From the NCBI GenBank assembly GCA_038895675.1, contig JAWANB010000001.1, positions 31,443 through 95,442 of the forward strand: DNA of 64,000 nt. Direction: 5' to 3'. This stretch comes from Candidatus Iainarchaeum sp. (GTDB lineage: Archaea; Iainarchaeota; Iainarchaeia; Iainarchaeales; Iainarchaeaceae). Below are positions 2,930 to 53,950 of the stretch, piece after piece; position 1 is the first letter of the stretch, and every line of letters begins with the position of its first letter. The notes below the pieces were generated by a model. That model searched no databases, had not been told where the DNA came from, and saw only the letters and a program-made list of their open reading frames with translations. Both the position numbers and the translations under genes were made by a program.

Positions 2930-3691
2930 TTATAAGCATCCAGCTGCTGCAAAGTCACGCGCTAGCACATTATAATTGTATTCAATATACCCCGTATTAC
3001 CAAAAGTTATTGTAAGCTTTAATTCACCAGGCCTATCACCTAAGAATATGAAAGGTGCAGAAGTTCTTGCAAGGTCTTTTTGGTATATTGAAGCAGTTTT
3101 ACCAGCTTTGGCTGAAAACTTGTAAGCGTTGTTAGTGCTTAAAGTATCAGTAGTATCTAATATTTGGGCTTTTATTGTGACAGGCTTTAAGTAACTGAAA
3201 TCAGTTTGACCAGTATTCTTAAAGTGTATTATTTTTATTCCAAGACCTCTTTTTCCTTCAAACTCTGGCGGACAAAAGAAAACTACTTCTTCTACTTTAA
3301 TATTATCTAACTTTGGTATTTTAGGTTCTTCAATTGGCTTTTGTTCACATTTACAAGATTTGCATACTTTATCATTACCGCAATCAGCATCAACTTCACA
3401 TTCTTCGTTAGCTTCTTTTACTTTATTCCCACACACTGGTGCTAATTCAACTTGAACCTTTTCTTCTGTATTTTCTGTAATTTCCTCACTACTAGTTTCA
3501 TTATTGCTAGTTTCACTATTGTTATTAACTACTTGAGCTTCATATATTGGTACAACTTGTTTATTTTCAACTACTTTATCATTAGTAAAAAATATTAAAA
3601 AACCAGTTATTGCAAGCACTCCCAAAAAAGCAAATACTAACAAAACTAACAATAAAGTTAATCCTATCAAAACAAGTTTGTCTCTATCCAT
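2930..3691 (-). CDS. Hypothetical membrane-anchored secreted protein with an acidic low-complexity segment and a Cys-rich module.
   Basis: N-terminal TM helix (LVLIGLTLLLVLLVFAFLGVLAITGFLIFF). Acidic Ser/Thr/Glu-rich linker. The Cys-rich block is CGNKVKEANEECEVDADCGNDKVCKSCKCE. Confidence 0.45.
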   Translation of the reverse strand: MDRDKLVLIGLTLLLVLLVFAFLGVLAITGFLIFFTNDKVVENKQVVPIYEAQVVNNNSETSNNETSSEEITENTEEKVQVELAPVCGNKVKEANEECEVDADCGNDKVCKSCKCEQKPIEEPKIPKLDNIKVEEVVFFCPPEFEGKRGLGIKIIHFKNTGQTDFSYLKPVTIKAQILDTTDTLSTNNAYKFSAKAGKTASIYQKDLARTSAPFIFLGDRPGELKLTITFGNTGYIEYNYNVLARDFAAAGCL

Positions 3692-3888
3692 GCTACTTAA
3701 AATTTACTTTGACTAAATATTTAAGGCTTTTTGTTTGTAAGGCTCTTTAAACTTCTTTTGTTTTTGACTTCAAAGTCTCTTTTAAGTCTTTTGTTTGTTT
3801 AAGCTCGCACCATACTCGTTTTAAAAGTCATTTTTAGGCTTTTAATTTTGCCATATTTTGTCATGCAAAAATTGCTTTTGTTCTAGTG

Positions 3889-4584
3889 TTAGCCGTATTT
3901 TTCAGTCTTTATCATTTCTTTAGGCACATTATTTTCAATTAATATTTTTTCAGTGTCTAAAACCATTGCTGGCGGGCCACATATAAAGTAATAACTTTCC
4001 TTGTTTTCTTCTACTATTTTTTTGATTAGTTTTGAATCTATTCTACCAAAGTAATACCCTTTCCTTTCTTCTCTACTCAGACAATACACTAATTTTATTC
4101 CTTTTATTTTTTTAGCAAATTCATCAAAATCATTTTTACAAATAATATCTTGCTCTGTTTTGTTCGAATAATACAAACTCACTTGAGTATCCAAGTTCTT
4201 GTCTAAAACGTATTGACAAAAACACCTAAAAGGTGCTATTCCAGAACCTGCAGCTAACAAAACTATTTTTTTCATTTTTTCAGGCTCAAACACAAAATGT
4301 CCCCAAGGACCATCCAACAAAAATTCTTCACCTAAAGGTGCAGTAGTCAATAGCTTTGACACATAACCTTCAGGCATTTGCTTTATCGTGAACTCTAAAA
4401 TACCTTTCCTTTCAGGAGAACTAGAACAAGAGTAAGACCTCTTTGGTATTTTTTCTTTTCTCAAGAATTCTATCATAAAAAATTGACCAGGCTTAAAATC
4501 AGGCCTTTCAGGACATTCAAAGGTTAAAGTGTAAGAGTCATGAGTCTCTTGTTTTACTTTCAAAAGCTTAGCCTTAAATTTCAT
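3889..4584 (-). CDS. FAD/NAD(P)-binding oxidoreductase, ferredoxin-NADP reductase-like (PyrK/HydG-like lacking a C-terminal Fe-S domain).
   Basis: FNR-like beta-barrel plus Rossmann fold. Motifs: RSYSCSS (the RxYS FAD motif), LLAAGSGIAPF (the GxGxxP NAD motif) and a C-terminal FICGPPAM. Confidence 0.65.
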   Translation of the reverse strand: MKFKAKLLKVKQETHDSYTLTFECPERPDFKPGQFFMIEFLRKEKIPKRSYSCSSSPERKGILEFTIKQMPEGYVSKLLTTAPLGEEFLLDGPWGHFVFEPEKMKKIVLLAAGSGIAPFRCFCQYVLDKNLDTQVSLYYSNKTEQDIICKNDFDEFAKKIKGIKLVYCLSREERKGYYFGRIDSKLIKKIVEENKESYYFICGPPAMVLDTEKILIENNVPKEMIKTEKYG

Positions 4585-4715
4585 GCAAAAGAAAAAAGTT
4601 AGACCTCTTTTTAATTTTATTTGTTAGCATTTAATTTTGAATTTTAACACGAGTTAATCGTTTTTAATAAGTATTATTATCCAATATTTATTTGGGATAA
4701 AAAGGAGGGAAAATT

Positions 4716-5321
4716 ATGCCATTTGCTTTACCAAAACTAAACTATGATTTTAATGCACTTGAACCATACATAGACGAACAAACAATGAGAATTCATTATG
4801 GAAAACACCATCAAGCTTACATTGACAAATTAAATGCCGCAATACTAAACACCAAATTTGAAAAAATGCCAATAGAAGACATACTAAAAGACTTAGAAAA
4901 AGTTCCTGCTGAAATAAGACAAACAATAAGAAACAATGGAGGAGGACACTACAACCATTCTCTCTTTTGGGAACTAATGAGTCCAAAAGGAGGAAAACTA
5001 ACTTCAACAATACAAAAAGCATTAGAGAACACTTTTGGCTCTTTCGAGTCCTTCAAAGAAAAATTCAAAAACGCAGGCCTAAATCAATTTGGATCAGGTT
5101 GGGCTTGGTTAGTAGTTTCAGACAAAAAACTTGAAATAATATCAACTCCAAATCAAGATAATCCTATTTCACAAAACAAAACACCAATATTAGGCGTTGA
5201 CGTTTGGGAACACGCATACTACCTAAAGTACCAAAACAGAAGAGCAGATTACTTAGAACAATTTTTCAACGTCATTAACTGGGAAAAAGTTGAAGAACTT
5301 TATAAAAAAGCACTCAAATAG
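4716..5321 (+). CDS. sodA: Fe/Mn superoxide dismutase.
   Basis: LPKLNYDFNALEPYIDEQTMRIHYGKHHQAYIDKLN...DVWEHAYYLKYQNRRADYL are classic Fe/Mn-SOD signatures. A strong RBS, AAGGAGGG, lies 8 nt upstream of the ATG. Confidence 0.95.
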   Translation: MPFALPKLNYDFNALEPYIDEQTMRIHYGKHHQAYIDKLNAAILNTKFEKMPIEDILKDLEKVPAEIRQTIRNNGGGHYNHSLFWELMSPKGGKLTSTIQKALENTFGSFESFKEKFKNAGLNQFGSGWAWLVVSDKKLEIISTPNQDNPISQNKTPILGVDVWEHAYYLKYQNRRADYLEQFFNVINWEKVEELYKKALK

Positions 5322-5370
5322 ATACCAAGATAAAAACCGCGCCTGAAATCCTCGAGCAACAGCAAATACT

Positions 5371-5411
5371 CAAACCAATTTTCCTCCTTTTAAAACATAT
5401 TCTTGGAACAT
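5371..5411 (-). repeat. Exact 41-nt copy of an internal coding segment of the gene at 5804..6754 (the segment at 6372..6412).
   Basis: On the minus strand this reads ATGTTCCAAGAATATGTTTTAAAAGGAGGAAAATTGGTTTG, encoding MFQEYVLKGGKLV and identical to codons 114-126 of the 316-aa gene. Here it sits in an intergenic position and runs into a TGA stop. Confidence 0.8.
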
Positions 5412-5446
5412 TTAAAGAATACAAAGACGCAAAAAAACCAGAAAAA

Positions 5447-5713
5447 TTGTATAAAACGTTCAAAATACAAGTCTTTGCAGAAAGCCTTTTAGTAAAAGAA
5501 TTGTTCAAATATTCTGTTCCATATGCGTTCATCAAATTCGAGCAGACAGGAGACCTTGTCAAAGTGAAAATCAAAGAAGAAGAATTATTGCAAGTAAGAG
5601 AAACAATTCAAAAAATAAATCAAATAATTCAAATAGAAATAATGCCAGACCCAACACCATTTATAAGGCGATGCAAAGATTGTGGTTATTTTAAGATTTG
5701 CAGAAGGGCATAA
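5447..5713 (+). pseudogene. Remnant ORF whose C-terminus has a Cas4/RecB-family nuclease-type CX2CX5C motif. Likely a degraded gene fragment.
   Basis: The frame is open from 5393 with no ATG, and the track uses a TTG start. The C-terminus is ...IMPDPTPFIRRCKDCGYFKICRRA. The C-x2-C-x5-C spacing is the Fe-S cluster motif that ends Cas4 and DUF83 nucleases. There is no room upstream for a nuclease core, because sodA ends 70 nt away. Confidence 0.3.
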
Positions 5714-5739
5714 ATTTGAAAGGAAAACTTTTGATTCTT

Positions 5740-5769
5740 ATGACTACGTTGGTTAGTCATGACTTTTTG
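5740..5769 (+). terminator. Hairpin followed by an oligo-T run.
   Basis: ATGACTA cgttggt TAGTCAT is a 7-bp perfect stem with a 7-nt loop, followed by GACTTTTTG. It lies just 3' of the 5447..5713 frame on the plus strand. Confidence 0.4.
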
Positions 5770-5803
5770 AAAAAAATAGTATAACTATTAAAAATTAAAG
5801 AAA

Positions 5804-6754
5804 TTATTTGTAAAGCATTCCATAATAAAGATTTTCAATTATGCCCCAATAAGTCTGTCTTTTTCCAGTTTCAGCATCAATAGGCATTTTATCACTAACT
5901 AAGTACTCTGGCGGGAAAGCATAATAAGCTACTCTGCCTCCAACTCCTGAAGTCACTATTATTGGAAAACTCTTTCCAAAATTTTGAGTTTTGCTTTCAA
6001 GCCAAGCATGATCTGCCTTTCCAACAAGATTAAAACCATAGTCAAGGTAAGCAGAAGACTTTTGATAAGCTAATTCATTTAAATTAACAATCGAAAAATC
6101 ACCATAAAGAGGCAATTTTTGGCTTAAACCATACGAAAGCTTATCACCAGAATCAACAAAATTTATATATCCTGCCAAGTCATTGCCTTTACATTCAGTT
6201 AATTCACACCTATTAGCAATAAATTGCACACCAAGTGTATAATCAAACGAAATTTGTTTTTCTCCTTCTTTTCTCGCCCAAGGCCCCAAATAAGCATCCT
6301 TTCCACCTTTTTTTCTTTCCGACTCAAGCAAAAGCTCTTCTTCTTTAGCAATAGTACCAGCATCACCTATCCAAACCAATTTTCCTCCTTTTAAAACATA
6401 TTCTTGGAACATGATCAACTCATCAACACTAATCTCTTTTGCTCTTTCTACTATGACTAATTGATACTCTTGCAACAAGGGCAAAGAAACAGATTCCAAG
6501 TCAATTAACTTGACCCTTGCAGAAATTCTCGGAGAACGCAAAACCTCGGCTAAAAAAAATGGATTTCCTAGACCTTCATCACCATACACTATTAACACTT
6601 TAGGTTTGCCACCTGCAACTATACTATAATAAACATCACAACCAAGCTCACTATAAAAACTACATGGCACTATGTTAAAATAAACGAGAGAAACACCAAG
6701 AACAATTAATAGTATTACCAAAACTACTAATTTTACTAACAAATTAGAGTTCAT
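5804..6754 (-). CDS. Membrane-anchored extracytoplasmic protein of a conserved paralogous family (see 59311..60258). Function unknown.
   Basis: N-terminal TM. Blocks shared with the paralogue: GCDVYYSIVAGGKPKVLIVYGDEGLG, YQLVIVERAKEIS...GGKLVWIGDAGT, LGPWARKEG...SFDYTLG, GVGGRVAYYAFP and a C-terminal LYYGMLYK. It is the last gene of the giant surface-protein operon. Confidence 0.6.
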   Translation of the reverse strand: MNSNLLVKLVVLVILLIVLGVSLVYFNIVPCSFYSELGCDVYYSIVAGGKPKVLIVYGDEGLGNPFFLAEVLRSPRISARVKLIDLESVSLPLLQEYQLVIVERAKEISVDELIMFQEYVLKGGKLVWIGDAGTIAKEEELLLESERKKGGKDAYLGPWARKEGEKQISFDYTLGVQFIANRCELTECKGNDLAGYINFVDSGDKLSYGLSQKLPLYGDFSIVNLNELAYQKSSAYLDYGFNLVGKADHAWLESKTQNFGKSFPIIVTSGVGGRVAYYAFPPEYLVSDKMPIDAETGKRQTYWGIIENLYYGMLYK

Positions 6755-52738: not shown

Positions 52739-53950
52739 ATGCCAAACTTTTCCAATATTGCACCAATCATAGGCTTAATAACCATAGCCATAATTGTTTC
52801 AACCATATACTATGGAGACTTTTTAGGTGTAAAAAATGTTTTTCAAATAACTGCATTTATTACCGCTAATTTTTCAAGCACTCCAAGCACTTTTTACCCA
52901 ACTATTTCACCAATAACTTTACAAAGCATAAGCATAAGCCGTTCTACTACCACTAGCCCAACCACAACAACACAACCAACACAAACCACAACACCAAACC
53001 CAACCACAACAACACAACCAACACAAACCACAACACCAAACCCAACCACAACAACACAACCAACACAAACCACAACACCAAACCCAACCACAACAACACA
53101 ACCAACACAAACCACAACACCAAGAATAAATAATAAACCAATAATAGTGATAGTAGATCCAACCTATAATTCCGTTTATACTGAAACAGATAAAATAACA
53201 GTTCAAACAGAAGTATTTGACTTTGAAAACAATGTAAGCTTTGTTGAATTCTTCTTAAATGATCAACTTATCTCAAAAGATGAAACATCGCCATATTCAA
53301 TTACATTAGAAAATTTGAAAGAAGGGATTTATGAAATAAGTGCAATAGCAACAGATCAACTAGGGTTAAATAGCAAGTCAAACATAGTTAAAATAGAAAT
53401 ACAAAAACAAAGAAGAACAACACAAAGTCCAAGACCAACAACAAGTACACCACAACCAACACAAAGCGTTCAACGAAAAACATGGGAAAGAGAATCTAAT
53501 AACAAATTATCTCCAGACAAACCATTAGTAATAATTACTAAACCAGATGCAGGACAAAAATTTTTTATTAACCAAACTTTTGAGTTTGAAGCCGAACTAA
53601 GACCAAAAGACTTCAACATAGAAAAAATGGAATTTTACATTAATGAAAAACTAATAAACACAGACTATGAGGCTCCATATTCAATAGAATATTCTGAAGA
53701 CAAATTAGGAGTATATACGTTAAGGGCGGTAGCAGTCTATGAAAAAACCCAAACTGCTTTTTCAAAACCAACGTGGATAACAATAACAAATCCAGAACAG
53801 CAAAAGCAAACAAAATCAATTTTAGAAATACCATTTATTGAAAATGGAAAAAAACAAGAAGAAAAGCAAGAACAAAATATTGTTAAAGAAGAAAAAAAAT
53901 ACAATTCTATACTTGACTTTATAATAGACTACTTACTAAAACTAATTTAA
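52739..53950 (+). CDS. Surface protein with a mucin-like Thr/Pro/Gln tandem-repeat linker and two Ig-like domains.
   Basis: N-terminal TM. About four 14-aa repeats (TTTTQPTQTTTPNP). Two homologous roughly 90-aa domains (…SPYSITLENLKEGIYEISAIATD… and …APYSIEYSEDKLGVYTLRAVAVY…). Confidence 0.6.
   Translation: MPNFSNIAPIIGLITIAIIVSTIYYGDFLGVKNVFQITAFITANFSSTPSTFYPTISPITLQSISISRSTTTSPTTTTQPTQTTTPNPTTTTQPTQTTTPNPTTTTQPTQTTTPNPTTTTQPTQTTTPRINNKPIIVIVDPTYNSVYTETDKITVQTEVFDFENNVSFVEFFLNDQLISKDETSPYSITLENLKEGIYEISAIATDQLGLNSKSNIVKIEIQKQRRTTQSPRPTTSTPQPTQSVQRKTWERESNNKLSPDKPLVIITKPDAGQKFFINQTFEFEAELRPKDFNIEKMEFYINEKLINTDYEAPYSIEYSEDKLGVYTLRAVAVYEKTQTAFSKPTWITITNPEQQKQTKSILEIPFIENGKKQEEKQEQNIVKEEKKYNSILDFIIDYLLKLI
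52957..53124 (+). repeat. 4 x 42-nt perfect tandem repeat encoding TTTTQPTQTTTPNP, inside the CDS.
   Basis: The unit cccaaccacaacaacacaaccaacacaaaccacaacaccaaa is repeated head-to-tail. Confidence 0.85.

Follow-up and report, generated by a model that had tools for sequence, protein, structure and literature searches.

Proteins of the Cas4 family have a RecB-type nuclease core, with motifs I, II and III, together with four Fe-S cysteines. To our knowledge, templated patches have been documented mainly in eukaryotes and in experimental systems, and not in DPANN archaea. Templated insertions at repair or template-switch junctions are the class of events with which the locus described here is compared (PMC12019639; PMC8421209). 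Microhomology-mediated end joining (MMEJ) has been experimentally documented in archaea (PMC12281630), and the primase PriSL of Sulfolobus type anneals microhomologies and carries synthesis across templates that are discontinuous (PMC12019639).

The locus lies in a window of 64,000 nucleotides, by which we mean the whole stretch of DNA that was analysed, and is centred on a 41-nt sequence present both just after sodA and inside a gene encoding a 316-aa protein (p316). The genome is that of a Candidatus Diapherotrites archaeon, which belongs to the DPANN archaea. With a probability of roughly three in four, the copy next to sodA (copy 1) is a scar left at a rearrangement that truncated a cas4 gene, and later recombined with the copy inside p316 (copy 2) in a sister strain, giving a deletion of 1001 bp. 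The features of the locus are listed below.

4716-5321, plus strand: sodA, Fe/Mn superoxide dismutase of 201 aa (Pfam Sod_Fe_N, E 9e-30; Sod_Fe_C, E 2.7e-43), the left neighbour
5322-5370, no strand: spacer A, from the sodA stop to copy 1; a hot spot of mutations separating the long and short forms occupies its right half (5346-5370)
5371-5411, no strand: repeat copy 1, derived and ectopic, at the rearrangement junction
5412-5415: TTAA, junction filler; 4 nt between the repeat and the first Cas4-homologous base, matching neither source
5416-5713, plus strand: 3' two-thirds of a cas4-family gene (PF01930), from the ExK motif to the stop; probable pseudogene remnant
5412-6412, no strand: unit of 1001 bp absent from the short form, made of the cas4 remnant, the 3' 60% of p316 and one repeat copy
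5804-6754, minus strand: p316, ORF for a membrane-anchored protein of 316 aa whose family is related to DUF4350 / ABC_transp_aux; source of the repeat
6372-6412, minus strand: repeat copy 2, native, encoding M115-V127 (MFQEYVLKGGKLV) of p316 in the best conserved block of the family

Comparison within the window sequence indicated that 5371-5411 and 6372-6412 are identical at 41 of 41 positions (CAAACCAATTTTCCTCCTTTTAAAACATATTCTTGGAACAT), with a start-to-start spacing of 1001. These are the only two sites for the 41-mer in the 64 kb, even when up to 3 mismatches are allowed, and a match to it was found in 0 of 100 dinucleotide-preserving shuffles. In a repeat search of the whole window, this pair was the sole exact repeat that is both long and dispersed, and one further strong repeat was returned, a coding tandem array near 53 kb. 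The latter (52957-53123) is a perfect tandem repeat of 42 nt in 4 copies (100% matches), CCA/ACA-rich, which probably codes for a low-complexity linker. Read on the minus strand, copy 1 carries the same 13 codons as copy 2, contains AAGGAGGAA, and runs into a TGA at 5372-5370, two bases of which belong to the repeat and one to the flank. The original prediction had described an exact base-for-base copy of 41 nt, made of 13 codons followed by TGA and containing GGAGG, with the remainder of the 316-aa gene unduplicated; each of these points was found again, the left flanks of the two copies matching at just 8 of 14 bases, which is marginal. The recurrence check that had been proposed for the 41-mer gave no further copy in the window and 0 exact matches in the JGI metagenome contigs or the IMG/VR viral collections.

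A total of 111 homologues of p316, of about 300-340 aa and mostly annotated as Diapherotrites or 'archaeon', were recovered from a large protein collection. In an alignment of twelve homologues, the segment encoded by the repeat falls in the best conserved block, MF.EY...GG+LVW.GDAGT. Residues G123, G124, W128 and D131-T134 are invariant in this alignment, F116, Y119 and L126 are nearly so, and the C-terminus (..YYGMLYK) is also conserved. Since the repeat segment sits in the conserved core of a full-length family, copy 2 is the native coding source and copy 1 a derived, ectopic copy. The GGAGG of the repeat is the codon pair for Gly-Gly.

The p316 protein search sampled no relative between 58% and 100% identity. 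In the nearest relatives (56-58% identical), a homologue of a 253-aa protein (p253), and not cas4/sodA, lies at the 3' side of p316, and synteny with these relatives is kept on the side of the 1091-aa and 558-aa genes and lost exactly at the 3' end of p316. When positions 2930-6754 of the window were set against two such contigs (L009, 5001-6822; L010, 5001-7940), the p253 homologue was located at or near the 3' end of p316, in convergent orientation. In the window, the 253-aa gene (2930-3691) is inverted, with fnr231, sodA and the cas4 remnant lying between it and p316. This difference in the placement of p253 suggests an older rearrangement with a breakpoint at the same 3' boundary of p316. 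A single inversion accounting for both the orientation of p253 and the truncation of cas4 was ruled out, because the segment to be inverted would include the truncated end of cas4, which is turned towards sodA.

Copy 1 had been assigned to the intergenic region 3' of sodA. This location is correct, but the region is not plainly intergenic, as 5416-5713 corresponds to the 3' part of a Cas4-family gene. The frame ending at TAA 5711-5713 is open back to the sodA stop, and from residue 30 it matches PF01930 (Cas_Cas4) with 36.5 bits against a gathering score of 22.7 (E 6.4e-9), the match covering profile positions 66-158 of 160 only. Cas4-domain proteins, with 63-84% identity, are its nearest matches in the large protein collection, and one of these bears the name 'Dna2/Cas4 domain-containing protein [Candidatus Diapherotrites archaeon]'. 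In an alignment with eight relatives, protein homology starts at EYKD, the ExK motif of the PD-(D/E)xK core, and the conserved block that precedes it in the homologues (..NFRTVLDCLIIDKxKNEAFPI) is replaced in the window by the translation of the repeat. In nucleotide sequence, blastn places the start of homology with the closest relative (L015, 80% identity) at base 5416, and four cas4 homologues read ..GCTTTCCCAAT(A/T)GAATA.. where the window reads ..GGAACATTTAAAGAATA... In comparison with the full-length relative (split in L016 as 71 + 120 aa), the window lacks ~90 further residues in addition to the cysteine of the N-terminal YCERL.

The remnant is thus devoid of the N-terminal Cys, of motif I and of the Asp of motif II (the D of the ..IDK.. 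block), and keeps the part from ExK onward with three C-terminal Cys. No ATG or Shine-Dalgarno sequence was found for it, in contrast with sodA, which has AAAGGAGGG seven bases before its ATG. The 99 codons of the remnant contain no stop and no frameshift, and public annotations give it an ATT or ATA start inside or upstream of the repeat, leading to proteins of 104 or 131 aa. Judged from its sequence, 5416-5713 is a probable 5'-truncated cas4 pseudogene remnant. As the right end of copy 1 adjoins the truncation point, 4 nt from the start of the Cas4 homology, copy 1 marks a rearrangement breakpoint.

No other cas gene was detected in the window by tblastn with the Cas12f-like, Cas1 and Cas2 proteins of L016, no CRISPR array was detected there by tandem and dispersed repeat searches, and no viral relative of the cas4 fragment was recovered from IMG/VR. 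The nearest cas4, 84% identical, is on a 1-kb contig in a different context, and none of the contexts examined had a cas4 homologue adjoining sodA or p316. The best relatives of sodA in GTDB species genomes are 69-70% identical, with an unrelated downstream context. A 65%-identical cas4 relative (L016) sits in a Cas12f1-like/cas1/cas2/cas4 locus. Genes of the same cas4 subfamily were repeatedly observed to be 5'-shortened or split (L097, 3479-3811; L098, 910-1242; L099, 921-1253; L016, 5774-6363). Some of these homologues are 110-aa ORFs that start with TTG; codons for DCL can be recognised ahead of this start, where only ~80 nt are available. The L016 gene, within its Cas12f1-like_TNB/cas1/cas2/cas4 locus, is split into 71 + 120 aa. 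A 7-nt inverted repeat (TATTCTT/AAGAATA) spans the junction between copy 1 and cas4 (5398-5421); its fold energy is no better than that of shuffled sequences and it may be due to chance.

By exact-protein look-up, the locus was recovered under two forms from several MAGs that belong to a single NCBI series. The long form, with two repeat copies, is that of the window and of GCA_038889715, GCA_038894155, GCA_038890465 and GCA_038891495. Over up to 12.7 kb, these four MAGs share 99.88-100% identity with the window, with a few SNPs elsewhere and 0 differences within 5322-5415, and both novel junctions are present in at least 5 independent assemblies. The short form, with one copy, was found on two independent contigs, from GCA_038884735 (L006) and GCA_038884555 (L008), and its background divergence from the window is ~0.5%. 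Its alignment with the window stops at 5411 and resumes at 6368, and the two aligned parts share 45 nt. The short form is exactly 1001 bp shorter and contains a single repeat, with the left flank of copy 1 and the right flank of copy 2, in collinear order. It is without the cas4 remnant, and p316 is cut to a 149-aa ORF which runs through the repeat into the sodA flank. This ORF is confined to the short form, whereas full-length homologues of 300-340 aa with a conserved C-terminus span the Diapherotrites.

Within the spacer that precedes copy 1, positions 5346-5370 show 11 differing columns between the long and short forms, for a background of ~0.5% (about one per 200 bases). The differences consist of two 2-nt indels, two substitutions and a CT/TC swap, in a stretch that is invariant among the long-form strains. 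A search for a template of the 27 nt left of copy 1 returned only chance 8-11-mers. The cluster may reflect repair-associated mutagenesis at the second event, that is, the deletion.

Several other differences were observed among these genomes. Positions 1900-2100 of the window show 64 differing columns with GCA_038884735 (L006), again for a background of ~0.5%, in the N-terminal part of a hypothetical gene of 155 aa (165 aa in L006). In GCA_038884555 (L008, 3745-3887), the last ~140 nt of the contig (window 6645 onward) diverge completely and encode a different, frameshifted N-terminal hydrophobic segment, corresponding either to a further rearrangement of the p316 remnant or to a chimeric contig end. 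GCA_038889715 (L001) has a run of 10 N (a scaffold gap) at window 4461-4471, inside the FNR-like oxidoreductase gene; this gap accounts for a gene call of 189 aa in that MAG, against 231 aa elsewhere. In GCA_038891495 (L007, contig JAWAEF010000063), A>C changes at window 6104 and 6108 lead to L216R and to a stop at Y217 in p316, which is called as 216 + 50 aa; this represents a second, independent loss-of-function allele. A 43%-identical paralogue of p316 (311 aa, P0028) is present elsewhere in the same MAGs.

The original prediction read the copy as the local scar of an illegitimate recombination or deletion. Our data are in agreement with this reading, as copy 1 ends within 4 nt of the cas4 truncation and its source lies in the conserved core of p316; the cas4 remnant itself and the natural deletion allele between the two copies are additions to that picture. 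In the proposed course of events, a rearrangement would have removed the 5' part of cas4 and whatever lay between cas4 and sodA, and a short duplicate of the conserved core of p316 would have been deposited at that junction. The resulting direct repeat of 41-45 bp, 1 kb from its source, would then have become a substrate for recombination. In the sister strain, the two copies may have recombined, by homologous recombination, single-strand annealing or slippage, generating the exact deletion of 1001 bp that would have eliminated the cas4 remnant and truncated p316 to the 149-aa ORF. What recombination between repeats predicts was found in the short form, namely one repeat kept, one repeat period lost and collinear flanks.

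The full-length p316 gene is the ancestral state, and its conservation throughout the family makes the short form a derived loss-of-function allele. The junction between spacer A and the repeat is also common to the short and long forms. The junction between the repeat and cas4 could not be derived from a short form mixed or recombined with a form without copy 1, which suggests that the long form precedes the short one. The simplest order of events would accordingly run from the ancestor to the long form and from the long form to the short form. No function of its own could be detected for copy 1, which we regard as a real but ordinary genome scar.

With regard to the origin of copy 1, we prefer a templated patch, because a single event suffices: DNA lying nearby would have been copied in the course of template switching or of microhomology-mediated break repair. 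By this one-step route, the DNA from sodA to mid-cas4 would have been lost, and 41-45 nt would have been copied from a template 1 kb away before the ends were rejoined. Junction microhomology is weak and ambiguous: the 4 bases left of the repeat are TATC in the short form, as left of copy 2, and TACT in the window, the flanks match at 8 of 14 bases as indicated above, and the right junction has 4 unmatched bases. The TATC of the short form could represent either microhomology or a longer original patch. The available outgroups (p316 at 58%, sodA at 70%, cas4 at 84% in a different context) are too distant to provide the pre-event allele.

The same structure might also have been produced in two steps. 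A tandem duplication would first have taken in the segment that starts in mid-cas4 and ends with the repeat; a later deletion, with one breakpoint just after sodA and the other 41-45 nt ahead of the duplication junction, would then have removed the first copy. This route is a serious but rather unlikely competitor. Its product matches the long form exactly, p316 being intact and cas4 5'-truncated, it invokes two common types of events, and the length of the repeat would simply be the distance between two breakpoints. However, it requires two independent events with breakpoints no more than 45 nt apart, no intermediate allele was seen among at least 7 contigs, and the 4 filler bases between the repeat and cas4 are still left to explain.

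Returning to the single-event patch, a more elaborate account would see in the locus the natural record of PriSL/MMEJ-type repair as a horizontally acquired type V-like CRISPR-Cas adaptation module (cas12f-like/cas1/cas2/cas4) was deleted, perhaps after self-targeting, with nothing but the 3' end of cas4 surviving and with error-prone synthesis in the second repair giving rise to the cluster of mutations in the sister strain. We consider this account speculative and distinctly improbable.

That copy 1 was kept because it is useful, for instance by ending sodA transcripts at a T-rich archaeal terminator or by giving the remnant a TATA-like promoter, seems very unlikely from what can be read in the DNA. 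The plus strand of the repeat does have TTTT..TTTT just after sodA, a TTTTAAAA box is located ~25 nt before the cas4-homologous part, and the 99 codons of the remnant are free of stops and frameshifts. Nevertheless, what the box would drive lacks an ATG, a Shine-Dalgarno sequence, the catalytic motif II and the first Fe-S cysteine, and the sister strain has lost the remnant altogether. The zero divergence over 41 nt is as predicted at a strain divergence of 0.5% and gives no evidence of selection.

Another possibility is that the repeats are the att sites of a 1-kb insertion, the short form being the empty site and the long form resulting from integration of a repeat-bearing circle by a single crossover. 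In favour of such a scenario, the segment carried by one strain and missing from the other is bordered by direct repeats and amounts to exactly one repeat period. Still, we find it most improbable, as the segment has no integrase, recombinase or replication function and holds a dead cas4 fragment and the 3' 60% of p316; moreover, full-length p316, including this 3' part, is conserved across the family, so that the occupied state is ancestral and the 149-aa ORF derived.

We give hardly any credit to an assembly artefact, in which the two-copy form would be a mis-traversed graph loop or the one-copy form a collapsed repeat. At small k, a de Bruijn graph forms a loop where a 41-nt repeat occurs, and some assemblers use 41 as a k-mer size. 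However, at least 5 contigs, which come from different MAGs and have SNPs elsewhere, carry the long form identically, base for base, over the two junctions, and the short form occurs in 2 further MAGs with a distinct background, ~0.5% diverged. Any assembler output of the junctions of the repeat with spacer A and with cas4 requires the corresponding k-mers in the reads, and the loop reading would need a free 1-kb circle without a replication gene. Mis-assembly of this junction had been named as what would overturn the scar reading; argued from the assemblies, it is not supported, the junction being reproduced in at least 5 that are independent.

Scarcely more credible is the alternative left by the original prediction, a mobile promoter/RBS cassette or, more generally, a short dispersed or mobile element (MITE-like repeat, regulatory motif) with two copies here: although AAGGAGG on the minus strand resembles the sodA ribosome-binding site and TTTTAAAA is TATA-like on the plus strand, the element would have only the two copies reported above in the 64 kb, one of which is ordinary conserved coding sequence with a GGAGG encoding Gly-Gly, and the minus strand downstream of copy 1 holds only the convergent end of sodA and hence no gene for the GGAGG to serve. 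The 41-mer has no terminal inverted repeats, fold energies were no better than those of shuffles (z 0.48, -0.20, 0.34), and no Rfam match was found in 5250-5850 at E <= 1. An RNA element was rejected on the last of these results, and a CRISPR repeat because the two copies are 1001 bp apart and the window was found to hold neither an array nor a further cas gene.

On its own, the locus is of little consequence, being a new instance of well-known kinds of events. It provides a clean, dated two-stage example in an uncultivated DPANN archaeon, in which a repair scar would have created a short ectopic repeat and the latter a second deletion that segregates between strains. It also bears on annotation, as the public 'Dna2/Cas4 domain-containing protein' of 104-131 aa would be a 5'-truncated remnant fused to 14 unrelated codons, and the 149-aa ORF of the sister strain a truncated p316. 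The two independent loss-of-function alleles of p316 show that this gene is dispensable in the population. The value of these observations is modest and lies in annotation and in documenting strain-level structural variation in a DPANN archaeon.

When compared with the Cas4 proteins (PF01930) of CRISPR adaptation modules, the 99 codons of the remnant retain the ExK motif, a QxxxF/Y-like helix and the C-terminal CX2CX5C. In contrast to these proteins, the remnant is without the N-terminal Cys, motif I, the motif II Asp and a proper start, and neither other cas genes nor a CRISPR array accompany it in the window. Because a defining part of the nuclease core is absent, the ORF adjacent to copy 1 is best regarded as a remnant of the Cas4 family and not as a functional member.

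The resemblance to templated insertions, or filler DNA, of the MMEJ, MMBIR/FoSTeS or PriSL type resides in a patch of 41-45 nt with its template 1 kb away, positioned exactly at a breakpoint, with a few unmatched bases at one junction and a possible microhomology of 4 nt at the other. The less likely two-step origin would set the locus apart from this class. With regard to the deletions between short direct repeats of prokaryotes, the locus differs in that its repeat pair would be the by-product of an earlier rearrangement, and not an old paralogous or IS repeat, and in that a cluster of small mutations lies beside the retained repeat in the deletion allele. The two agree in the following: identical repeats flank the segment in one allele, and the other allele keeps one of them, minus 1001 bp, in collinear sequence. 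The short allele thus has every structural characteristic of a direct-repeat-mediated deletion.
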